DNA from: Escherichia phage Mangalyan
DNA: 64,000 nucleotides
Reading direction: 5' to 3' (one strand)
Sequence record: OR449013
Below the pieces are notes generated by a model. The model was not told where the DNA came from, did not search any database, and worked only from the letters and a program-made list of their open reading frames with translations. The position numbers and the translations under genes were made by a program. How positions within the stretch are numbered: the stretch's first letter is position 1; every line of letters starts with the position of its first letter. This document shows positions 42,304 to 56,319 of the stretch, one piece after another.

Positions 42304-42430
42304 CACACAATTAGTTGCCCGGCTAAAGTGCTGGGAGCACCCATAACACATCTTTCAACTAAATTTTCTACCACCACAATCACTTACCTCCCACACATGA
42401 CTGTTTGCTTGTTTAGTGAGCAGTCATGCC

Positions 42431-42458
42431 TTGACATTCTTGCCTATCCTGATAAAAT
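42431..42458 (+). promoter_or_regulatory. candidate sigma70-like promoter at entry to ORF-free zone
   Basis: TTGACA 42431-42436, 16-bp spacer, TAAAAT 42453-42458; no ORF downstream. Confidence 0.4.
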
Positions 42459-42654
42459 TAAGTTCTTCTCTTTTCTTTTACCGAGTAATTCGGGTTTTCT
42501 GTTCTCTTCGGTTTGAAGGGGTATGGAGATACACCTGAGTGAACAGGGTGAACAACCGAACCATTGGCTATGGCATTAGCATGGCGAAGCGGACGGGTGA
42601 CGAAAGAGGGGCCGGAGGACACCAGTCACTGCCATATGATATATGGGTGATAAC

Positions 42655-43193
42655 CTGAAGAGTCTGAATAAGTGTTTAAGTACCAGTCAGAGGAAAAGGT
42701 GAATGGTAGCCGAAGGGGGAGGGGGGTTACCTGCTTCTGTAAACATGCATCTGAAATACTACTTTAGATAACCTGAACCTGCCTTTCTGACAAATATTCC
42801 CTATTAAACTTGAATTATTTATAGAAAATACCACAACACCACTTAAGTCTTTGATTTTACACACAAATCTTACAGATATTAAACCTCTCTATTTAACATA
42901 CCTGTAACATATACTATACTCCACCTGTCTGATCAATTTCCCCAACTACATCCCCATATTTTCCCTGTCTGTACTACCCCTGCCCCGCCGGGAGTCCCGT
43001 CATATCTGGCTTTCCAGCAAATATCACACCCACAAATATCATCACCTGAAGAGGGTTTCATCCCATAATACATGCCTTACCTGAAGAGCGCTTCATACAC
43101 CACATAAATTTTTTAATTGACCCCCTCCCCGCCGCCGGAGAGGTTGGCTTTTCCCACACAGACCTGGAGAGTCAGCCAGAAATATCTGAAGAG
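42655..43193. repeat. four dispersed copies of about 15-bp motif CCTGAAGAG(G/C)G(T/C)TTCA
   Basis: CTGAAGAG at about 42655, 43046, 43081, 43186. Confidence 0.7.
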
Positions 43194-43750
43194 GGTCTAG
43201 TTCTGCCCTGTCATAAGCGGTAGCGACTGGAGTGCTGCTAGGCGGACGAAATGGGAATACTTCTCATTCTTATAACAATTCTCAAATATCGAGGCAGTGA
43301 GGCAAATTAATAGGTGAGGCCGTTCACACAGTGGCACAACATTTGCAACCTATCTTGTGGGATTGAATGAGAATACCTATCATTGTGAGAACTGTTATCA
43401 TTACGGGCAATTTAACATAATACCCATTATGCGCACCACTGGCGATACATACAGGGATTGATAACATGGGTTACTGTTTACGCACATAACAATTATATTT
43501 CTTACTATTTGTGTGGGATATAGTTAGCAGCCGATAGATTAGATATTAACCTGCAGACTTCTGACCGTCCAGACGTCTAAACGCCCACACACCAAGGATT
43601 ATACATACACTCCTGAATGTAAACAGGGCCGCAAAAATGCTACCATACAAGCTTGTAAATTTTTCATGCAGCACTTGACAAAGAGGAGAAAAACTTGTCT
43701 GACATAATGTGACCTAACTGACACAACATGACACTTTTACACACCTATTA

Positions 43751-43820
43751 GTTTACACACTGGATTGTTTACATTCCTGATTGTTCACATGCTAACCATT
43801 TACATGATTGACTGTTTACA
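43751..43820. repeat. iteron-like array: five copies of GTTTACA (variants GTTCACA, ATTTACA) at 15-16 bp spacing
   Basis: copies starting about 43751, 43767, 43783, 43798, 43814. Confidence 0.75.
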
Positions 43821-43833
43821 CACCGATAATCAG

Positions 43834-44083
43834 CCATGCCATTCGTTTGCATGACAATAATTATACATGACAATAATCGCACTGATCATAATTAGCATGA
43901 CATAATATAAAAGCAGGGCAACTATTAGCAGATCTATAGTTGCCTTGCTTGTTATGTCATGATTAACTAAATACAAGGCAACTATGATCTGATTAATAGT
44001 TTGCAGACAAACTATCACGGGGGTGATGGTTACTGCTTTTATATTATGTCGCGACTCCGTCGCGCCATGCCATTCGTTTGCAT
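43834..44083. repeat. direct 19-bp repeat CCATGCCATTCGTTTGCAT (two copies) flanking inverted repeats GGCAACTAT / ATAGTTGCC
   Basis: 19-mer at 43834-43852 and 44065-44083; palindrome arms at 43917-43925 / 43936-43944; second related palindrome about 43977-44005. Confidence 0.7.
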
Positions 44084-44697
44084 AGTTGCCTTATTGTTAC
44101 AGATAAAATAATTGTATTGTTAATTATTTCTTATCTTTCTATTAGTCATCTAATGATTTCAGTTAATATAGTAACGTACAGTAAACATTAGACGACTAAA
44201 GATTTCTATGCTTATGGTAACCTAACGTGACAATTCCAGACTGTTTACGAAAAATGTTGACACCTGGGCCGATTTATGTTATGCAGTTTACACGAATAAT
44301 TATTTTATGCAGGTATTGACTATTCCGTTATTCTATGGTTGGAATAAATGCTTAGCAGGCTATAGAATGGCGAGCGTACGTAAATTCTGAGATCTGGCGG
44401 CTATAGTTATACTCGATTTTTCACGTAGAAAACGCTTTTGTAGTTATGTAAGTGTATGACTTATAAAGTTGACAAGCTATTGAATATATGCATCAGGTTA
44501 AATTTTGTGCAAATGCTGCATTACGTGCAATTTTGGAAGGAAAAACGTGTAAAAATGGCCCTGCTACCACACAATGAAAAATTATGCAATAGTTATTTTA
44601 TATGTATGTTTGTACAGTGTGTGGGATTGATGGCTCGTCAATTATTCCACTTGCCAGGTAGGGCCGTTTATGGTAGGGGGAAGAGCAGACAAAAAGA

Positions 44698-44715
44698 AAG
44701 GGGCCTAAGCCCCTT
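44698..44715 (-). terminator. rho-independent terminator for leftward transcripts
   Basis: AAGGGGC CTAA GCCCCTT; on minus strand followed by UCUUUUUGUC. Confidence 0.65.
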
Positions 44716-46190: not shown

Positions 46191-46401
46191 AATGTTTTCC
46201 TCTCTTCTGGTTGTTGTGTGGGCACTTTTGCCCCTTCAAGATAAATGTTACCCCACCACCTGGCAGATGTCAACGGTTTTTATAGTTCTTATATGACAGG
46301 CAGGCCCGGTGATTGTCTCCACCCGTCGCCAGGTGCCTGCCGTGAAACAAGTATAACAAAAAACAGGACCATTGCAAGCCCTGTTTTGTAGTTTATAAGG
46401 A

Positions 46402-48048: not shown

Positions 48049-48394
48049 GGTGTTTACCTCTTCTTTGTTCCGGGTGGAGGATCATTCTACCACCTTATGT
48101 ATTATGCTTTGTTAGATGGTTGTTTGTTGCCAAACTATTTTAACGATAATCATCATATGCTTTATTTACCTGGCGAATATAACATTCAAAAGCCAGATCA
48201 ATAGATTTATATTCACGGATATACTCACCATAGGAAACCACATACATTTCTATAGCTTCCTCATATGCGAGGAGAATAGAATCTAAGCCTACGATCTCAG
48301 TTTTTGCAATAATAGCCATGATTTTTATCCTCTTTGTGGTTGGTGGGGCTTGTTGCCCCCTTTGATTTATATACTACAGTTTTATATGGTCATG

Positions 48395-48628
48395 TCAACA
48401 CTTTTCAAAAAATTTTTCTGCCGTGATATTCTTCCCGGTAGGGTTCGCTACTTTCAAAATTTTATCATGCACTGGACGCCCAAAAGAATAAGATCCGTAT
48501 ACAGTAAACCAATAATCTCCGTCAGGCTGTACTATTACCGCCGCATATGGTACGCCTTTTTCGTTTTTGCTGACAAAATAGATCACATTACCATTAATAG
48601 CCTCAGCGCGTTTAATTTGTTCCATCAT
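48395..48628 (-). CDS. hypothetical protein (77 aa)
   Basis: ATG preceded by AAAGAGAGG and GC hairpin. Confidence 0.5.
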   Translation of the reverse strand: MMEQIKRAEAINGNVIYFVSKNEKGVPYAAVIVQPDGDYWFTVYGSYSFGRPVHDKILKVANPTGKNITAEKFFEKC

Positions 48629-48695
48629 GATGATTTGCCTCTCTTTATTTTTTTTATGATTTTATGCTGTAGGGGCCTTTTCGGCCCCGCCAGGT

Positions 48696-48980
48696 TTATT
48701 TATTGATAGCGTGCAGCGGGAAAGCTACGCCAGGTTGATAGATAACCTTTACAACCTCATCAGGACAAAAGAAATTGCAGAACTCACCGCAATAGGCCTC
48801 ATCCTCTTTTAATTCTTCATCAACATACTCAAAAAAGTAGTCGATGCTTGGATAATCCTGGCCGGGATTATAGTCGACCATCGTTAATAATAACTCTTGA
48901 TCATTCCGTAAGATATGCATACCCGCTTTTAAGTATTTTGCTTCCATTTCTACTGCATCGCCAGCGGTAACAATAGCCAT
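48696..48980 (-). CDS. hypothetical protein (94 aa)
   Basis: ATG preceded by ATAGGAG and GC hairpin. Confidence 0.5.
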   Translation of the reverse strand: MAIVTAGDAVEMEAKYLKAGMHILRNDQELLLTMVDYNPGQDYPSIDYFFEYVDEELKEDEAYCGEFCNFFCPDEVVKVIYQPGVAFPLHAINK

Positions 48981-49203
48981 GGTTTTAACTCCTATCTATC
49001 CGGTTAATGATTTGGGGCCGCCCCCTGATGCGTCCTATTATCCATATTGTGGGGCTTGATGCAAGTACTTCTTTAAAAATTTTTTAAGCGCCTTGGGGCC
49101 GCTGTAACGCTAAAATAATAAAGACCATGCAACCGCATAGCCTTAATGTGATTATATCGCTGCAGGCCCTGCTAGGGGCCTTATTTTGCATCATTTACCG
49201 GAA

Positions 49204-49512
49204 CTATACAGAGAAAACATCGTTCACAATAGCGATCACAATGCCGCCCACCTTGTCACGGTCAACAATGCACAAATCACCATAGATCATGTGGTAGTCT
49301 GGATGATCTTTCACAGAATAGTCAATAAGCGTTTTCTTGTCGTCCAGCTTCGTAACTTCCATTCTCATAACGATATGAGAATCATCAAAGGCATTATTCC
49401 GAAAAATCATAGCCTGGCCGCCAGGGCACCCGGTGATCTCCACTTCCACACCATCTACGATCTGACCATCAAAGAAATAAAGATTATTAGCCTGGATAAA
49501 CATGCCTATCAC
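49204..49512 (-). CDS. hypothetical protein (102 aa)
   Basis: ATG preceded by AAGGAG. Confidence 0.5.
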   Translation of the reverse strand: MIGMFIQANNLYFFDGQIVDGVEVEITGCPGGQAMIFRNNAFDDSHIVMRMEVTKLDDKKTLIDYSVKDHPDYHMIYGDLCIVDRDKVGGIVIAIVNDVFSV

Positions 49513-49549
49513 TCCTTGTTAACTGCGTGGTATTTTAACAGGGTTTAAA

Positions 49550-49598
49550 TTTACTTTATTGATGGCCTTGGAGTCAAGGCCATCTAAAAATAAATTTT
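49550..49598 (-). promoter_or_regulatory. conserved about 46-bp element (copy 1 of 3): hairpin GATGGCC-N10-GGCCATC with TTGACT in loop, leftward promoter-like
   Basis: near-identical copies at 53291-53337 and 53912-53957; on minus strand reads TTGACT, 18-bp spacer, TAAATT. Confidence 0.5.
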
Positions 49599-49797
49599 AC
49601 AGGCCTACAATCTCTTTAATTCGTTTTACTGCTGCCTCAGCGCCTTGAGGGTAAAAATTATGGTAACCAATCACGCGAGTGATACTAATCGCCGTTTGAT
49701 GATCTTCATAATCACCTTTAAAGATTTCTTGACCGTCAATCAGCACGGCAATTTTTTCTTCTTTTTTGAAGTTAATAACGCGGATATTGTTGCTCAT
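49597..49797 (-). CDS. hypothetical protein (66 aa)
   Basis: ATG preceded by GAAAGGAGAAAC and 5' GC hairpin 49829-49843. Confidence 0.5.
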   Translation of the reverse strand: MSNNIRVINFKKEEKIAVLIDGQEIFKGDYEDHQTAISITRVIGYHNFYPQGAEAAVKRIKEIVGL

Positions 49798-49851
49798 TTT
49801 GTTTCTCCTTTCTGGTTTTTGTGGTGGTGGGGATTAGCTCCCCGTTGATTG

Positions 49852-49881
49852 TTATTATCCACATTCCGGACCGGATTGCAA
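49852..49881 (-). promoter_or_regulatory. leftward sigma70-like promoter followed by 5'-proximal GC hairpin
   Basis: minus-strand TTGCAA (49876-49881), 17-bp spacer, ATAATA (about 49853-49858); hairpin GGGGA-TTAGC-TCCCC at 49829-49843. Confidence 0.45.
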
Positions 49882-49928
49882 CACCCCGGAAGAATTTTTT
49901 TTTTTTTAAAGATAGGCCCCCATGATCG

Positions 49929-50048
49929 GGGGCCGTTCTTAGTTACTTACAGCGATAAAGTACATCCCTACGCCTAGCAATATTTCAAGGGCGATAATCT
50001 CAAGCCATACCATAACGCGGCGCACCTTATCGGTGCGGGGCTTATCCT
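49929..50048 (-). CDS. hydrophobic mini-protein (39 aa)
   Basis: below cutoff; GGGGGAG RBS; MTPKDKPRTDKVRRVMVWLEIIALEILLGVGMYFIAVSN. Confidence 0.35.
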
Positions 50049-50224
50049 TGGGTGTCATCGTCTCCCCCTTCCCTTCTGGTAGTAGTGACGTGGTTTACAA
50101 TGGCCCCCAGGAGTATTATCACCACGCACATTACAAGAAAAATTATCTCTGTCGTTGTTCGATCCATTGTTATAAAATTCCTTAAGATCAGGCCTGAAAA
50201 TAAAGCTTTCATTATTGAATCCAT
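50042..50224 (-). CDS. small membrane protein (up to 60 aa)
   Basis: ORF with hydrophobic core IIFLVMCVVIILLGAIV; start uncertain. Confidence 0.3.
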   Translation of the reverse strand: MDSIMKALFSGLILRNFITMDRTTTEIIFLVMCVVIILLGAIVNHVTTTRREGGDDDTQG

Positions 50225-50277
50225 CCCGCCAGGCGGCTGGCCTCAAATCTTCACTAAATGGATTAATTAACGTGGTA

Positions 50278-50682
50278 TTATTTAAACGGCTGGCCCACAT
50301 ATTTTCTATTCCTCTCAAATAAGCGATCCGCCTCAGTTAAACAAATCTCATGGGCGTGATCTCTGGTTTTAGCTTCATCGAAAACCTGTTGTGCAAGGCT
50401 GCAACGTAGGGAGACTGGAAGATCACTATAATAGGCGTTGACAAACGTTTGAGCGTCGTACAGGTCGGAAAATACTTTACCCTTTCTATTATTCCCCTTG
50501 TCAACAATTGCAAGGATAACCAATACAATAGTTGCAACCACCCCCAGGAAAATAGATATAATAAACCATAAAAAGGCGGATCTTCCCATCTTGCCAGCGA
50601 TCCAGGCGTTAAACAAGGCAACCAATACAGCCAAAATAATAAATTCCATTCTATGTACCTCTTTTACAGTTCTGATTAACAA
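50278..50682 (-). CDS. membrane protein (134 aa, two TM segments)
   Basis: FIILAVLVALFNAWIAG and FLWFIISIFLGVVATIVLVILAIV. Confidence 0.55.
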   Translation of the reverse strand: MLIRTVKEVHRMEFIILAVLVALFNAWIAGKMGRSAFLWFIISIFLGVVATIVLVILAIVDKGNNRKGKVFSDLYDAQTFVNAYYSDLPVSLRCSLAQQVFDEAKTRDHAHEICLTEADRLFERNRKYVGQPFK

Positions 50683-50713
50683 TAAGGCGGCAAATATGCC
50701 GCCTGTTACCTGA

Positions 50714-51094
50714 TTAAAAATTATCGCCGTAAATCTTTCCGCTTTCTACCCATACCACCACGCGAGGCATACTATCCCACACGTCTTGTTTTAGATTGAG
50801 CGCGTGCAATTCTTCGGTGGTGCTCATACCGGGCACGGGCTGATTGTATACTGCAAAACGACCGCCTGCATAATCATAGGCCAGGGTTAAATCACACTGG
50901 ATCATCTTTTTGATCATGGCATTAAGCATGGCGTTAGCCGCATATTGGTCACGTTTTAAAGGCAACTCTTTGATTAGTTTGCGATAGTTTTCGATATGGT
51001 CGCACACTGTTTCACGCGGAAGATCTTTCATATCCTCGCGAAAGGTAACCAGGTTAAACATAACGGTGTCAATAGCCTTGGTAGTGTTTTTCAT
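50714..51094 (-). CDS. hypothetical protein (126 aa)
   Basis: ATG preceded by AAAGAGGATAAAATC, 5' hairpin 51119-51139 and promoter. Confidence 0.55.
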   Translation of the reverse strand: MKNTTKAIDTVMFNLVTFREDMKDLPRETVCDHIENYRKLIKELPLKRDQYAANAMLNAMIKKMIQCDLTLAYDYAGGRFAVYNQPVPGMSTTEELHALNLKQDVWDSMPRVVVWVESGKIYGDNF

Positions 51095-51148
51095 GATTTT
51101 ATCCTCTTTGTTTTGTGTGGGGGCAAACGTCTTGCCCCCTTGAGTTTT

Positions 51149-51176
51149 AATATAGCAGGTTTTTAGGTTATTGCAA
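51149..51176 (-). promoter_or_regulatory. leftward sigma70-like promoter followed by 5'-proximal GC hairpin
   Basis: minus-strand TTGCAA (51171-51176), 16-bp spacer, TATATT (51149-51154); hairpin GGGGGC-N9-GCCCCC at 51119-51139. Confidence 0.5.
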
Positions 51177-51184
51177 CACTTTAT

Positions 51185-51808
51185 TTATGAAAAAGTCATC
51201 TCGCCATATTCATCCACATCAAACCGCCAATCATTGGCCTCGATAAGGCCGATCAGGTTTTCGGTAGTGAATTGTTCAAGATAGGCCCCCTCCAGGTCTA
51301 CGTAAACCTTGCGGGATAGCTCCCGTACCGTCTCGGTGATCAGCTCTTCCAGGTCTTCCACTTTGTTTTCTTGTTTGGCGGTCAGATCTAGCCAGGTGGT
51401 ATCAATGTATCCGCTTACAGTGTTTTCATGGCTGTAATGGCTGTACTTGTCGCGTTCAACACTGGCCGATAACTCGCCATCGTGCATTGTGCCGAACAAG
51501 TGACGAATTGATCGGAACTTGGTCAGGGCCTTGACTTTACGCAAGAATTTTTCTAAGTCTACATTTTCAGCACTAATCGATGCGCCATCGCCTTGACACC
51601 AAAAGCCGGACCAATGTACTTCGGTATCTTCAAGGCCGTACTCTGGAAAAACTTGTTCTTTATAGTATTCAATTACATTTTCTGCAAAAAAGTTATCCCC
51701 GCTGTGTTCTTCTCTTTCGCGTACCATTTCAATGGCTTTTTCTTTTTGTTCGTCGGTCAGCACGTCGAAAGATAAATTGTAACCTGTGGTAATGTTAACG
51801 GTGGTCAT
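51185..51808 (-). CDS. hypothetical protein (207 aa)
   Basis: ATG preceded by AACAGGAGAAAA; contains HWSGFWCQGDGASI block that I cannot assign. Confidence 0.55.
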   Translation of the reverse strand: MTTVNITTGYNLSFDVLTDEQKEKAIEMVREREEHSGDNFFAENVIEYYKEQVFPEYGLEDTEVHWSGFWCQGDGASISAENVDLEKFLRKVKALTKFRSIRHLFGTMHDGELSASVERDKYSHYSHENTVSGYIDTTWLDLTAKQENKVEDLEELITETVRELSRKVYVDLEGAYLEQFTTENLIGLIEANDWRFDVDEYGEMTFS

Positions 51809-51865
51809 GATATTTTCTCCTGTTTTCTTTGTTAGTGGCGGGAAGTTTTCCCGCCTATGTTTTTA

Positions 51866-51893
51866 ATTATACTTATCAAGATTTACTTGTCAA
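51866..51893 (-). promoter_or_regulatory. leftward sigma70-like promoter
   Basis: minus-strand TTGACA (51888-51893), 16-bp spacer, TATAAT (51866-51871). Confidence 0.6.
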
Positions 51894-52143
51894 CACTATT
51901 TTTTAAATTATTGTGGCGCAAAATGTTTAAAATCTCCTCAACGTCATCAACACGGCGGCAATTTTTAAACGCTACCAATTGCCCCAAGATTTTAATTACT
52001 GGGCGGCCTTGCCAGTGACCTTGAAGAAAGCGCGCTTTAACTTTATCGGTGGAACTATCACGCCACCAAATAGCCTTGTTGTTGCAGTAGTAAAAATTAT
52101 TCAGGATAACATCAACCTTATCAAAATTTTTTAATTTACGCAT
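51883..52143 (-). CDS. hypothetical protein (86 aa)
   Basis: ATG preceded by AAAGGAGTAAACGCC. Confidence 0.5.
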   Translation of the reverse strand: MRKLKNFDKVDVILNNFYYCNNKAIWWRDSSTDKVKARFLQGHWQGRPVIKILGQLVAFKNCRRVDDVEEILNILRHNNLKNSVDK

Positions 52144-52175
52144 GGCGTTTACTCCTTTCTCTCTTTGATGTGGTT

Positions 52176-52203
52176 AGTATAGCTAACCTGTTTAAGATGT
52201 CAA
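52176..52203 (-). promoter_or_regulatory. leftward sigma70-like promoter
   Basis: minus-strand TTGACA (52198-52203), 16-bp spacer, TATACT (52176-52181). Confidence 0.55.
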
Positions 52204-52386
52204 GCTTTAAATAAAATCACTGTCAATAATATTTTTAACGCCATAAAACGGTCCTGGGCGATGTTTTCAGGTTAAAGGGGGCGATTTTGCATAGGTGGGG
52301 GCCTTTTTGGCGCTTACAGGGCCAACCAGGGGCGCTATTCGTAGGATAGAAACAAAAAGCCCCGCACAATGGCGGGGCGTTGGTTG

Positions 52387-52584
52387 TTATTTGTCTTTAT
52401 GGCGGTACCGTTCCGCCTGTCGTTCACGTTCCAAAAGTAGGCTGGGCAATTTACGATCATAATGATTGCGCCAGATCTTCCCAAACCTTTTTGGCTTATT
52501 CAGTTTATTGTTACGCTGGCGGCGTTCCGGCAGCTCTTCGGAATCATGAGGGCGCTTTACAATTTTCTCGAAATTAATTTTCAT
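52387..52584 (-). CDS. hypothetical basic protein (65 aa)
   Basis: ORF overlapping upstream stop. Confidence 0.45.
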   Translation of the reverse strand: MKINFEKIVKRPHDSEELPERRQRNNKLNKPKRFGKIWRNHYDRKLPSLLLERERQAERYRHKDK

Positions 52585-52991
52585 ATATTCCCCCCCTTGC
52601 TAACTTCAATATTGGCCTGAATGGCCCGGATACGGCGCTTTATAACTTCCTGATCTGTGTGATCGTATCCCCAAAAGTCCACAATTTTTGCGCCCCCCGC
52701 CTCCAGGCGGTATAGTGTTTCCTGCATTTTGTAAGCCGGGATCGGTCGCGGTGTTACTTGGTCACCTTCTTTATTTTTATACTTTATAATATAATCTTCG
52801 TTATCGTTAAATGTCCAAAATGGATATTCTGCAAGGGCGGTACTTCCTCTTTCCTTTTTATCCTGGATCTTGTTTACAATTAAAGCCGTAGCAATAGCGC
52901 CAATAATAAAACTAGCCCCGCTAATCATGTACTTTCTCCTTTCATTGTATTGATAAACTATCTTTATAGATGGCCCTGCAACCAGGACCAC
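52581..52991 (-). CDS. hypothetical protein with N-terminal TM anchor (136 aa)
   Basis: ISGASFIIGAIATALIV hydrophobic segment. Confidence 0.5.
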   Translation of the reverse strand: MVLVAGPSIKIVYQYNERRKYMISGASFIIGAIATALIVNKIQDKKERGSTALAEYPFWTFNDNEDYIIKYKNKEGDQVTPRPIPAYKMQETLYRLEAGGAKIVDFWGYDHTDQEVIKRRIRAIQANIEVSKGGNI

Positions 52992-53002
52992 CGAAAAAAT
53001 AA

Positions 53003-53248
53003 CTATTTCACAATGCCTACAAAACAGATTCCGCCTTCACCTATATAGGCAATATCGGTAATTTTATAATTTGTCAAGATCCGCGTGTTCAGCTCATTAA
53101 TAAAATCGGTCATCGCGTTGGTGTAGTTGTCTTCCGTATCTAAGGCATAATCCCAGGTGTAAACCTTTTTACGTCCGAAGCCTTTTACCATGATACGGGC
53201 GCTTTTGGTGTTGGTAGGGGCATAATATTTGGTGATTAGTGCTGCCAT
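53003..53248 (-). CDS. hypothetical protein (81 aa)
   Basis: ATG preceded by ATAGGAG. Confidence 0.5.
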   Translation of the reverse strand: MAALITKYYAPTNTKSARIMVKGFGRKKVYTWDYALDTEDNYTNAMTDFINELNTRILTNYKITDIAYIGEGGICFVGIVK

Positions 53249-53290
53249 GGTTTTAACTCCTATGCATTAGTTCAGTGTTAACAGTATAAA

Positions 53291-53337
53291 GTTTACTTTA
53301 TTGATGGCCCTGGTGTCAAGGCCATCTAAAAATAAAT
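53291..53337 (-). promoter_or_regulatory. conserved about 46-bp element (copy 2 of 3)
   Basis: TTTACTTTATTGATGGCCCTGGTGTCAAGGCCATCTAAAAATAAA; minus strand TTGACA, 18-bp spacer, TAAACT. Confidence 0.5.
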
Positions 53338-53679
53338 TTACTCGTTTTCTTCCAGTTCTGCAAGCTCTTCTTTCACTTCTTCCAGCTCTGTCTGCAATTC
53401 TTGGTACTCTTCATCGTCCTCAATATCCAGGCTGTCGATGTAGTCGCTAAATCCGCAGCGGTAAGCGATAGGATCTAACTCCTTGAGGATACGCGACGGA
53501 AGAAAAGAAATGTTTCCGATCATAATTTCGCCATAGATCTCGTCTAGCCATTCATCATAGTTTTCGTCGTACTTGTCCTCGTCGATTTCAAAGTTATCGA
53601 TCTTGTTCTCAAGGTCTGCGATCTGTTTTTTCAGCGCGGCGATCTGAATAGCTTTTTCTGCGGCGGTCATAGTAGTCAT
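53338..53679 (-). CDS. hypothetical acidic coiled-coil protein (113 aa)
   Basis: ATG preceded by AAAGGAGAAAACACC. Confidence 0.5.
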   Translation of the reverse strand: MTTMTAAEKAIQIAALKKQIADLENKIDNFEIDEDKYDENYDEWLDEIYGEIMIGNISFLPSRILKELDPIAYRCGFSDYIDSLDIEDDEEYQELQTELEEVKEELAELEENE

Positions 53680-53729
53680 GGTGTTTTCTCCTTTTTGTGT
53701 TTTGGGAAGTTTTCCCGTTTACGTGTTTA

Positions 53730-53757
53730 AGTATACCGATTTGGGTTAGCTTGTCAA
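53730..53757 (-). promoter_or_regulatory. leftward sigma70-like promoter
   Basis: minus-strand TTGACA (53752-53757), 16-bp spacer, TATACT (53730-53735). Confidence 0.55.
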
Positions 53758-53911
53758 TTAAAAATTTAAGAAAAATTTTGCAAAACTGTTGGCGCTACCC
53801 ATCAACATTTGCGCCAGGATGTACCCAATGATGCAAACGATGATGGTTACCTTTGTGTGCTGGCGTGTAGTGCTCATCTTTAAGCCTCCTTTTCCGCTCA
53901 ACTGTGGTTAG

Positions 53912-53957
53912 TTTACTTTATTGATGGCCCTGGAGTCAAGGCCATCTAAAAATAAAC
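53912..53957 (-). promoter_or_regulatory. conserved about 46-bp element (copy 3 of 3)
   Basis: TTTACTTTATTGATGGCCCTGGAGTCAAGGCCATCTAAAAATAAA. Confidence 0.5.
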
Positions 53958-54353
53958 TCAATAAGTTTTTAGTACTTTCCCGTCCAATCTGTCAAGCTGG
54001 ATCTCGATAGCTGCAGAAAACCTATTGTAAACCACATCGCCCAGGGAGTCCAGCCAATCTATGACGTTATATACCTGCTCTTTATTCTTGCAAGTCCGGA
54101 TCCGTTTCATTACGTAAGACGGATCAATATTAGCGCTCTCGTTGTTGTGGTCCTGCGCCTGGCCTGCTGCGCTAATTATAGATTTTACAACCACCTGAAA
54201 GGGCTTTAAGGTGCCTTTTGCGTTCATCTCACGCGCTTTTGCGGCGCGGTTGTTATATGTTACACAACGGCGGCAAATGTTGACCAAATGCATATCAATA
54301 ATTTTTTCATCGTTTGCCAGTTCGTTCATGATGCGGCGTACGTTCTTATTCAT
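53958..54353 (-). CDS. hypothetical protein (131 aa)
   Basis: ATG preceded by AAAGGAAAAAGATC and GC hairpin. Confidence 0.5.
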   Translation of the reverse strand: MNKNVRRIMNELANDEKIIDMHLVNICRRCVTYNNRAAKAREMNAKGTLKPFQVVVKSIISAAGQAQDHNNESANIDPSYVMKRIRTCKNKEQVYNVIDWLDSLGDVVYNRFSAAIEIQLDRLDGKVLKTY

Positions 54354-54435
54354 GATCTTTTTCCTTTGTGCTGGCGGGAAACATTCCCGCCTTTTGTGTC
54401 TAGTTTACTTAAATTTTGCAGCGTGTCAATGATTT

Positions 54436-54834
54436 TTATTCGTGGGCGCATGTTACAATGTGTTTTTTATAGCCCAGGTGGTCAGCAAGTGCCGACAAAA
54501 ACTCTTCTTCGTAGATCCAGCCGTCGGCAGTGATCCCCATAGCATTTAATGCGCTCTCAAGTGCTGCGTTAGCTTTATCGTAACCGTGACCGCTCGCCTT
54601 GCCGCCAGTATAACCGTACTTATTGTTCTTGTTGTCGTGAATCCAAAACACGCAGTAGTGAGTGTTCCCGCTGGCGGCGGCATAATACCGGATCTCAGCT
54701 ACTTCGTGCAAATTATTGTCATCGTCCAGGCCCACCAGATTATAAGCCTTGTAAAATCCACGATCACGGCGGCAGTTCTTGACATCAGAAAAAGAAAAGT
54801 CCGCATTATCAAAATTAAAGGTAGTGGTTTTCAT
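54436..54834 (-). CDS. hypothetical protein (132 aa)
   Basis: ATG preceded by AAGAGGATAAAATC. Confidence 0.5.
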   Translation of the reverse strand: MKTTTFNFDNADFSFSDVKNCRRDRGFYKAYNLVGLDDDNNLHEVAEIRYYAAASGNTHYCVFWIHDNKNNKYGYTGGKASGHGYDKANAALESALNAMGITADGWIYEEEFLSALADHLGYKKHIVTCAHE

Positions 54835-54898
54835 GATTTTATCCTCTTAGTGTCTTTTGTGCTTTTAGTGTATTTGGTGTCTGACTATATGTCAATAC

Positions 54899-55096
54899 TT
54901 ATTTTTTATTAAACCAGTGGTTGATCTGGCCTTTTGTCAGGGCGCAACGATTAAGCTGTTGCCGGGTATAGCTCTGACCGCGACGGAATTTATAAAGGCC
55001 TTGCCCGTTGTTGATGGTTACGTCCACCTGGCAAACCATTTGATCGGTGACGGCCTGGCGAGTGTTGCGACGTACTTTAATTCCGTAGGCGTTCAT
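54899..55096 (-). CDS. hypothetical basic protein (65 aa)
   Basis: ATG preceded by AGAGAGGATAAAAAATC. Confidence 0.45.
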   Translation of the reverse strand: MNAYGIKVRRNTRQAVTDQMVCQVDVTINNGQGLYKFRRGQSYTRQQLNRCALTKGQINHWFNKK

Positions 55097-55465
55097 GATT
55101 TTTTATCCTCTCTGTTAATTAGTGTGGTGTTGTTCACCTTGCGAGGATAAGAATAACAGAACTATCCGAGCTGTCAACCATTAGTTAGAATTATTTTTTG
55201 GGCAGAATTCTCCAGCCGCCGCCCCTGCCAGGTTAACCATCATTTTTTCGTACTCTTCTTTATGTTCCAACGCTCCCGCCATAGCCTTTTCAACCAGGGC
55301 GATAACTTCAGCGGCATTGATCGCTACATTTTCCAGGGGATTATATTACTTTTCATTTTTGTACCTCTTCTGTAGCTGCTTACTTTATAGCGTGGACCTG
55401 CCAGGCTGGCCCCGCCAGGTTGCAACGGTTAGCGCATCAGGTTAGAATTTTTTTTTTGAAAAGTG

Positions 55466-55494
55466 TTGACAGCGGCCCCGCCAGGTGGCACAAT
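55466..55494 (+). promoter_or_regulatory. candidate rightward promoter driving tandem structured units
   Basis: TTGACA 55466-55471, 17-bp spacer, CACAAT; GC-rich spacer GGCCCCGCCAGGTGG. Confidence 0.4.
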
Positions 55495-55510
55495 ATACCT
55501 ATCGAAAGGA

Positions 55511-55735
55511 CGGCAGGCACCGGTGACGGGGGAGACAACCACCGGGGATGGGCGCTGCATAAAATGAGAACGGTTATCATTATCATTTAAAAATTTATGC
55601 AAAAAGTCCTTGCTTTCTTTGTCCTGTGTGATACTATAATAACAAGCCGGGGCAACAGGGGCCGGGAGACAATCACCGGGGGTGCCCGTTATTCTGCAAA
55701 CGAGAATGATTATCATTCAAAATTCTAAATGAGAA
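55511..55735 (+). ncRNA. two tandem about 85-nt related units (candidate small structured RNAs or regulatory elements)
   Basis: unit A about 55511-55600 and unit B about 55649-55735 share GGGAGACAAYCACCGGGG and GAGAAYGRTTATCATT; second unit preceded by TATAAT 55635-55640; no ORF with RBS. Confidence 0.3.
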
Positions 55736-55899
55736 CTCCTCGCATTTAATAAATTTAATTAGCATGCTAATTACCCTCCGTAACAATTTCCTATAAAACA
55801 GTATCCCATAAAATATTCCCATATAGAAATTTTAAAAATCCATTTCTGAAAACGAAAAATCGATTTCGTCCCCAAAAATTTCAGGTCGAGATCCGGAAC

Positions 55900-56025
55900 G
55901 ATTTCCAGAAAATCCGATTTAGAAAACGAAAAACAGATCGAGTACTGAGAAATTTATCGAGAAAAATTTTCAGAAAATCCAAGCCATGAAATGAAAAGTA
56001 GATCGAGTACTGGAAAAATTGTACC
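55900..56025. repeat. tandem about 65-bp AT-rich direct repeat (two units) within a larger repeat-rich spacer
   Basis: AGATCGAGTACTG at about 55935 and 56000; CAGAAAATCC at about 55908 and 55971; GAAAACGAAAAA at about 55849 and 55922. Confidence 0.7.
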
Positions 56026-56319
56026 GCAACCCACTGATAGTGATGGGTTTTCCGTCATAAATCACTAAGAGTGAGTGGAGAAAGGTATGGTGGAGAGGTG
56101 TGTATGTGTGGGAAATATGGAACGGTGATCTCGAGTATGGTGCAAACGGCTAGATAGATTGGCACAATTTTCCGCGCTTGTGTTGAAAAAATCCATTTTA
56201 GTTTTCGATCCATTTTCTGATTTTCTAAGAATTTTAAAATATCTATGTGTTCAAAATATCAGGAGAAAATACATTTTAGAAATTCCCCTGATTTCTGGCA
56301 ACTTGGCAATTTAAAAATA

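Follow-up and report, generated by a model that had tools for sequence, protein, structure and literature searches.

A GC-rich 13-mer, GGCCCCGCCAGGT (11 of 13 positions G or C), here called the box, recurs in a stretch of 64,000 nucleotides from Escherichia phage Mangalyan (sequence record OR449013), the whole of which is referred to as the window. The phage is a Vequintavirus, an rV5-like myophage of E. coli, and between 48.0 and 56.5 kb it shares 92-94% sequence identity with naam, isim, rV5 and over 100 further phages. A leftward (minus-strand) block of tiny open reading frames (ORFs) to which no function is assigned occupies the window from about 45 to 64 kb. Consensus sigma-70 promoters and GC-rich hairpins, many with a plus-strand T-tract, are frequent throughout this block, for which the rV5 and Gotham records annotate promoters and terminators only. 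Within the block lies a stretch of about 1 kb that is free of coding sequence (CDS; about 55366-56319), and a rightward promoter, P1, stands at its left edge. The rV5-like phages are often isolated and are candidates for therapy and biocontrol, yet their early regulation and replication origin lack a definition; the genome paper of rV5 offers only promoter and terminator lists together with an inconclusive skew analysis, and leaves the origin undefined (PMC3606486). We describe the box as a previously undescribed, real but modest detail of a familiar class, the repeated cis-regulatory boxes of phage early control regions; the conserved non-coding locus around it is the more interesting object.

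A GC-rich 13-mer at three conserved sites

Three exact copies of the box are found in the window, all on the plus strand: copy 1 at 48683-48695, copy 2 at 55408-55420 and copy 3 at 55474-55486. The complete rV5 genome (137,947 bp) holds the three homologous copies and no more, and every Vequintavirus genome examined keeps the same three sites. The number of exact copies expected in the window from a first-order Markov model is 4.8e-4, and the probability of at least three is about 2e-11. When up to two mismatches are allowed, five matches stand against 0.57 expected, a number that none of 100 shuffles reached. Correction for the look-elsewhere effect showed that some triple 13-mer arises in 70 of 400 third-order Markov simulations (17%), and the window itself has another one, TGCAAACGAGAAT, which is coincidental (one non-coding and two coding sites); these triples would speak for a compositional coincidence among GC-rich hairpin stems, but not one of the 400 simulations gave a triple with at least 10 of 13 positions G or C. 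Chance, to which we leave a negligible probability, is already refuted by the simulations and by conservation of the three sites. The preliminary description had called the recurrence unlikely by chance and proposed the count against shuffled sequence as its check; both the statistics and the conservation in every Vequintavirus examined uphold it. It had located copies 1 and 3 essentially correctly (at 48684 and 55472), and had misplaced copy 2 by 28 nt, at 55436. The two variants that it had added to the set did not stand. That near 55217 is GCCCCTGCCAGGT at 55221-55233, a coincidence of coding sequence that is in frame on the minus strand of an ORF197 homologue (AAC CTG GCA GGG GC), and synonymous changes at third codon positions destroy it in relatives (e.g., CTAGG in Gotham). 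That near 50226, said to be in reverse, is actually CCCGCCAGG at 50225-50233 on the plus strand, in the same orientation as the boxes; it is one lone 9-mer, compatible with chance and likewise classed as a coding-sequence coincidence. A scan of IMG/VR with GGAGACAAYCACCGG returned single matches only, apparently by chance, and a protein search of the same resource returned two Vequintavirus contigs. Chi sites are absent from the window, and the box resembles GCTGGTGG only loosely.

Copy 3 is embedded in P1 (55446-55494, plus strand). The promoter is composed of an A/T run with GAAAAGTG (UP-like), TTGACA at 55466-55471, a spacer of 17 nt and a TG-extended CACAAT at 55489-55494, which bears out the earlier placement of this copy within a promoter spacer. 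P1 is of early type, its hexamers match the consensus at 10 of 12 positions in addition to the TG, and its UP/-35 segment of 20 nt is identical to that of a leftward early promoter at 48398 (segment 48393-48412). The box fills 13 of the 17 spacer positions and thus overlaps the core, from -35 to -10, of a plausible sigma-70 promoter. As a result the spacer has a GC fraction of 0.88, compared to 0.25-0.59 in the other strong promoters of the block save one at 0.71, and this one is the carrier of a half-box, GCCAGGTGG. Variation per column per sequence, determined from 16 unique Vequintavirus sequences, is 0.019 in copy 3 and 0.045 downstream of it; the -35 hexamer is invariant in this set and the -10 hexamer is variable at its third base. 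E1 (55506-55565, plus strand; nhmmer E = 5e-7), a GC-rich, hairpin-forming element that is nearly invariant among Vequintaviruses, begins about 5 nt past the start inferred for P1. A sigma-54 promoter was considered because of TGGCAC at copy 3 and was rejected by inspection, the correctly spaced TTGC being absent.

Copy 2 and the TGCA that follows it (55408-55424, plus strand) form an island of conservation centred about 87 bp upstream of the P1 start. Variation per column per sequence is 0.010 in copy 2 as compared to 0.074 and 0.116 in its flanks; only two of its 13 columns are variable, both by singletons, and the TGCA is invariant. The island is about 7-10 times less variable than either flank and overlaps no conserved promoter hexamer or ORF. 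Among the 21 columns downstream of it, 11 are variable, and its upstream side is rich in insertions and deletions (indels). Copies 2 and 3 are direct repeats that lie 66 bp apart in the window and 65-68 bp apart across relatives. They match at 17 of 18 positions, and outside the 13-mer there is no homology among the three copies. A degenerate box, b1 (GGACCTGCCAGGC, 55394-55406, plus strand, three mismatches), abuts copy 2 and marks the right end of the indel-rich stretch. It is missing in phage ECP26, and isim, rV5 and PDX have a further degenerate copy ahead of it; the window differs from these three by a deletion that has box-like repeats as its bounds, and the indels beside copy 2 are bounded in the same manner. 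The stretches around copies 2 and 3 fold no better than shuffled sequences on either strand (z = -0.41, 0.18, 0.11), and RNAalifold applied to 11 sequences found no covarying helix around them. Two promoter assignments for the surroundings of copy 2 were rejected. The idea of a class-II activator site serving a promoter at 55420-55448 was dismissed because the -10 hexamer TAGAAT reads TAGAAA in most relatives; a leftward promoter with TTGCAA beside copy 2 has no suitably spaced -10 hexamer and would lie where indels abound.

Copy 1 is intergenic and directly adjoins the leftward ORF 48696-48980 at its stop codon (48696-48698). This copy provides the 3' arm (GGCCCC) and part of the lower stem (GCCAGG) of a hairpin at 48667-48693, CTG-TA-GGGGCC / TTTTC / GGCCCC-GC-CAG, with a GC-rich stem of 6 bp (9 bp including the lower stem) and a loop of 5 nt that reads GAAAA on the minus strand. 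The fold of -18.1 kcal/mol (z = -3.7) is equalled by none of 200 shuffles, and the hairpin is a stable GC-rich stem-loop. On the plus strand, GTTTATTTATT is placed 3' of the extended stem, starting 7 nt past the 6-bp upper stem; the minus strand is without a U-tract. The hairpin therefore resembles a rightward-facing terminator in its GC-rich stem, 5-nt loop and plus-strand T-rich tract, but differs from one in that the tract adjoins the stem only if the interrupted lower stem forms; a terminator consensus scanner did not list it. Neither copy 2 nor copy 3 is a hairpin. The upper stem is conserved in relatives. In Gotham the lower stem is lengthened over almost the entire box, and in the metagenomic relative IMGVR_b a G-to-T change of the box stands opposite an A in the other arm and is thus compatible with pairing. 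Homology to phage phi92 ends at 48631, just before the hairpin, which places a mosaic junction there, and the sequence comparison indicates a recent mosaic exchange (48500-48631) bounded by the hairpin. With a gene of phi92-like phages (Stephanstirmvirinae), the neighbouring leftward ORF 48395-48628 shares 92-96% identity.

Counterparts in related genera

Orthologues of P1 with GC-rich spacers are present in all of Mydovirus, Seunavirus, Certrevirus, Phapecoctavirus and an Acinetobacter phage, and some genera have a repeated box of their own. The P1 spacer of Mydo (Mydovirus), ACGGCCCCGGCCTGGGA, matches the window spacer at eight of its first nine positions; GCCCCGGCCTGG occurs twice in this phage, in two promoter spacers, and the GCCCCG of the spacer pairs with a CGGGGC upstream of the -35 hexamer. 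Certrevirus has the 11-bp palindrome GCCCGSCGGGC, represented by CGGCCCGGCGGG three times in PBES02 and by GCCCGCCGGGC twice in F4M1E, with one copy in the P1 spacer and the rest in a repeat field. Because this palindrome would leave a loop of 1 nt, it cannot fold as a hairpin, yet it is suited to a dimeric protein. Seunavirus shows a parallel change from CTGGG to ACGGG, which affects both of two direct copies located on either side of the -35 and -10 hexamers of P1. The P1 spacer of CB7, ABPH49 and ukendt is a perfect hairpin with a T-rich tract, placed just after a small rightward ORF.

In Certrevirus CB7 (CB7_124, L138:1362-1784) and Phapecoctavirus ukendt (L127, about 2067-2333, unannotated), the small rightward ORF contains a motif resembling a helix-turn-helix, GWQGGTVHQVA..TGL, and is found between two GC-box promoters, P0 and P1. 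The same slot is occupied by an unrelated ORF in Mydo and 4MG and by a third type in ABPH49, and Vequintavirus has none there. This variable slot may encode a regulator in some genera.

Operator-like site, hairpin relic and other readings

The collective evidence on the box is read here, tentatively and with a probability somewhat short of even, as an operator-like protein-binding site controlling P1. The reading is drawn from four features, namely a word of recognition length without shared flanks, the island at copy 2, the spacer position of copy 3 and the lineage-specific, partly palindromic counterparts in other genera. Three exact 13-mers that lack flanking similarity are typical of recognition sites, not of duplicated segments, and copies 2 and 3 are both conserved above the neighbouring non-coding sequence. 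The box would accordingly be understood as a genus-specific cis-element of the Vequintavirus early control region, recognised as GGCCCCGCCAGGT by a sequence-specific factor of phage or host origin. Bound at copy 3 between the -35 and -10 hexamers, such a factor could gate the access of RNA polymerase to P1 and so repress or modulate it. P1, if active in vivo, would drive E1 and, beyond it, a second element, E2, together with a region of AT-rich repeats. Copy 2, at 65-68 bp upstream of copy 3, could serve as an auxiliary site. Copy 1 would chiefly be a hairpin arm, in RNA or DNA, at a gene junction, whether bound or not. Repressor operators (those of lambda OR/OL, of P22 Mnt/Arc, the LexA boxes) overlap the sigma-70 promoter around -35 and -10, and MerR-type sites lie in the spacer. 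Like these, the box is a short word of the sort that recurs two to four times in a control region, has one copy in the promoter core and one a few helical turns upstream, and exists in lineage-specific versions in related phages; unlike them, it is very GC-rich and without a clear dyad, its copies are spaced by 65-68 bp, one of them is far from promoters, and no cognate DNA-binding gene was identified among the ten flanking ORFs. Should it prove to be an operator, the box would give a starting point in the search for its regulator and in tests of the locus as an origin or RNA-based control centre; if it is a hairpin relic only, what remains is a minor annotation note.

Several observations weigh against an operator. 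The box is not palindromic and shows a dyad of 3 bp only (GGC...GCC), and its spacing across relatives implies no strict helical phasing between copies 2 and 3. The control region is 95-98% identical overall, so that the conservation of copy 3 is by itself little informative, and this copy has singleton substitutions at four positions among the 16 sequences. Copy 1 is adequately explained as a hairpin arm and has no recognisable promoter nearby, and two of the five sites of the original set are coding-sequence coincidences. The hairpin spacers of CB7, ABPH49 and ukendt suggest a promoter-embedded terminator rather than an operator. As regards a cognate protein, Pfam gave no significant match on the ten ORFs flanking the control region, a small part of the proteome (two matches on one ORF were below the cut-offs), and neither the window nor rV5 has a homologue of the helix-turn-helix-like ORFs of CB7 and ukendt.

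The main rival, unlikely in our estimate and still to be taken seriously, interprets the boxes as arms or relics of terminator-like GC hairpins that were fused to early promoters and came to recur by cassette duplication and recombination, copies 2 and 3 being half-hairpins left after loss of an upstream rightward ORF. Copy 1 agrees well with this, as it is a genuine hairpin arm whose lower stem changes compatibly in relatives and which sits at the mosaic junction with phi92. The same is true of the complete hairpin with T-rich tract that follows a rightward ORF in the P1 spacer of CB7, ABPH49 and ukendt, of the spacer pairing in Mydo, and of the deletions between box-like repeats by which the window differs from isim and rV5. 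The leftward block is, moreover, full of GC hairpins and of repeated promoter/stem-loop cassettes (D1, D2, D7). The PeSL (promoter-early stem-loop) cassettes of T4-type phages, which Arbiol, Comeau and Krisch reportedly described in 2010 and proposed to mediate early-gene shuffling, invite comparison. The early block of the window is comparably hyperplastic, with its tiny ORFs and recurring modules of promoter and stem-loop, and the box, too, is sited at recombination or mosaic junctions (copy 1 at that with phi92, copy 2 beside its indels). It is unlike them in that it comprises 13 bp without shared flanks, not a homologous cassette of about 50-70 nt, that copies 2 and 3 are without a stem partner, and that the stem-loops of the window are downstream of the promoters and not upstream. 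Genuine cassette families of the block share 51-67 nt (50-67 nt for D1 and D2), whereas the box copies share the 13-mer only (copies 2 and 3 agree at 17 of 18 positions). Furthermore, copies 2 and 3 lack a complementary arm, fold like shuffles and show no covarying helix, and the sharp island of conservation at copy 2 is not expected of a neutral relic. The relic explanation accounts for copy 1 and for the hairpin spacers of other genera, and does not account for the conserved copies 2 and 3 that are without partner.

Action of the box in RNA and function as a site of DNA methylation are both weaker explanations than relic or operator. At the RNA level, leftward transcripts would carry the box as ACCUGGCGGGGCC, or it would form part of rightward read-through RNA, and its role would be in processing, stability or pairing, for example with the G-rich E RNAs. 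We consider this very improbable. The identical strand orientation of all copies, the position of copy 1 in an RNA hairpin right past a stop codon and the presence of ACCUGGCG in the stem of the E3 RNA are in its favour; but copy 3, being in a promoter spacer, is transcribed by read-through only, no significant or covarying structure surrounds copies 2 and 3, the window contains no complementary partner at up to three mismatches, and the Certrevirus GC boxes are one-strand direct repeats in the spacers of divergent promoters. A candidate partner present in relatives about 1 kb to the right, downstream (GGCCCCACCTGGT, minus strand), was rejected, as it is coding and has diverged in the window. 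Still more doubtful is the proposal that the function of the box resides in a Dcm site, CCWGG, at its core, with cytosine methylation in the spacer tuning P1 and marking parental against new DNA. CCAGG is indeed contained in every copy of the box, most of about 15 control-region spacers across genera have CCWGG by an eyeball count that was not computed, and the 500-nt bin from 55001 has eight such sites, the maximum of the window at a mean of about one per 500 nt. Genome-wide, however, CCWGG is neither avoided nor enriched (126 observed compared to 75 from base composition and 137 from a maximal-order Markov model), the conserved word is far longer than CCWGG, and the P1 orthologues of GE_vB_MG, ABPH49 and PBES02 are without it.

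The gene-free regions and their elements

The box marks the regulatory core of the CDS-free region at whose left edge P1 stands. Palindromes and AT-rich repeats accompany the rightward promoters there, as do structured GC-rich elements, and the region includes at least two unannotated, apparently structured RNA families. Its position and part of its sequence are kept in Mydovirus, Seunavirus, Certrevirus, the Acinetobacter phage and Stephanstirmvirinae; equivalent regions in Vequintavirinae and Stephanstirmvirinae are L127:1878-3140, L129:2204-3163, L128:1891-2610 and, approximately, L130:1950-3200. The searchable literature has no mention of the box, of this region, of the E elements that form one of these families, or of a Vequintavirus origin. 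The E elements number exactly three paralogues in the window and likewise in rV5, as detected by nhmmer, and each is located just past a sigma-70-type promoter. E1 is followed by promoter P2 (55610-55637, plus strand; TTGCTT at 55610-55615, TACTAT at 55632-55637), which is assigned to E2 (55638-55701, plus strand; nhmmer E = 1e-15), the copy that is orthologous across genera. E3 (46347-46285, minus strand; nhmmer E = 1e-12) contains ACCTGGCG and belongs to a leftward module spanning 46245-46377, in which it is placed between two leftward promoters: one upstream at 46377-46350 (minus strand, TTGCAA-16-TATACT) and one after it at 46273-46245 (minus strand, TTGACA-tctGCCAGGTGGtgggg-TAACAT), the latter with the half-box in its spacer. 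The three elements share a near-invariant AGACAAWCACC, flanked in E2 by complementary GC-rich runs. RNAalifold on the E2 orthologues gave no robust consensus; hairpin potential is seemingly kept in shifted registers, as judged by hand inspection. A metagenome scan with a 20-mer from E1 yielded three useful loci, and the rest was unrelated gut-metagenome sequence sharing that 20-mer.

Annotation of rV5, APCEc02, Pr121LW and other phages places a hypothetical protein, ORF198 (rV5 116782-117060; window ORF 55429-55716, minus strand), over E1, P2 and E2. Phage AlexBoehm, which is viable, has a deletion of 134 bp that joins E1 to E2 and is not a multiple of three, implying that ORF198 is not coding. 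From this deletion, the near-invariant nucleotides and the internal repeat, ORF198 is almost certainly spurious.

Outside Vequintavirus, P1 is followed by a different, highly conserved RNA of about 95 nt, here called RNA-X (GCCACCCCACGGCGAAAAGGCGGGGCUAAC...GGAAGGUGGAUCGCCGGUAG), found at L129:2327-2421, L128:2316-2410, L127:2376-2470, L130:2339-2433 and ten more loci. It has a consensus fold with one clear covarying pair, changed from GC to AU in 5 of 14 sequences, and a CCCC/GGGG pseudoknot is possible. Rfam 15 gave no match at the gathering score in the window; at E <= 5, matches between 45.5 and 57 kb were at chance level only, and at E <= 1 there were none in 42-45.5 kb or in four related loci. 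Neither the E elements nor RNA-X has an Rfam match.

The CDS-free region may serve as a replication origin, as a locus of RNA control, or as both. In the T7 primary origin, a pair of tandem promoters precedes an AT-rich region, and transcription primes replication there. The locus, as distinct from the box, offers an analogy in P1 and P2, tandem and rightward, which lead into a stretch of 67-71% A+T with repeats of 65-74 nt, and the phage encodes a DNA polymerase and a primase-helicase of T7 type. The differences are that the promoters in the window are of host sigma-70 type, that the transcripts would be GC-rich hairpins and that GC skew is uninformative. One might extend the operator reading accordingly: the GC boxes would be operators of a switch for a locus common to Vequintavirinae and Stephanstirmvirinae, either a replication origin primed by transcription or a locus dedicated to non-coding RNA, with tandem sigma-70 promoters whose spacers are GC boxes firing G-rich hairpin RNAs (E1 and E2, or RNA-X in other genera) into Fur-box-like palindromes and AT-rich iterons, and with the box-binding factor setting the timing. 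We regard this extension as rather improbable.

Palindromes resembling the Fur box (TGAGAAnnnTTATCA) are found at 55565-55585, 55701-55715 and 55730-55750, with a second cluster at 43250-43400, and phage 4MG has a perfect one, TGATAATGATTATCA. At up to three mismatches to the 7-1-7 Fur core, 22 matches compared to 6.2 expected were obtained, clustered in both gene-free regions; they could be sites of host Fur, or a phage protein could use them as operators or iterons. The AT-rich repeats comprise three tandem iteron-like units of 65-74 nt at 55817-56020 (67-71% A+T) with the motifs GATCGAGTACTG and TTTTCGTTTTC; PBES02 and GE_vB_MG have analogous repeats containing GATCGAG. GATC sites are not clustered in the gene-free region, where five sites in about 1 kb correspond to the genome average. 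The pseudo-ToxI anti-toxin locus of PhiTE was considered and set aside, since it occupies another intergenic region, between phiTE_202 and 203 (PMC3475682). To the left of the gene-free region, the ORF197 homologue (55205-55365, minus strand) has a 1-nt deletion in a G-run at about 55338 relative to isim, Gotham and rV5, giving ATG...AAA ATG TAG, and is either a pseudogene or affected by a sequencing error. The ORF197 of rV5 itself has three other indels, and this small ORF may thus not be a real gene.

Elsewhere in the block, cassettes of 51-67 nt that combine a hairpin with an early promoter are found at 49547-49597, 52955-53005, 53289-53339 and 53909-53959, and at 48332-48398, 51827-51893 and 53691-53757. 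These cassettes, whose hairpins read GATGGCCTTG...CAAGGCCATC or GGCGGGAA...TTCCCGCC, resemble the T4-type PeSL cassettes, and many of the hairpins, having a plus-strand T-tract, would terminate antisense (rightward) transcription. A second gene-free region of about 2.4 kb (42350-44700) is found where the rightward block meets the leftward one and corresponds to the 'non-coding' box of the rV5 paper (PMC3606486). No tRNA and no Rfam match was found in it. It includes a strong rightward promoter (42431), GC-rich patches, two tandem GAGAA...TATCATT motifs and the short repeat families ACCTGAAGAG, TGTTTACA and CATGACA.

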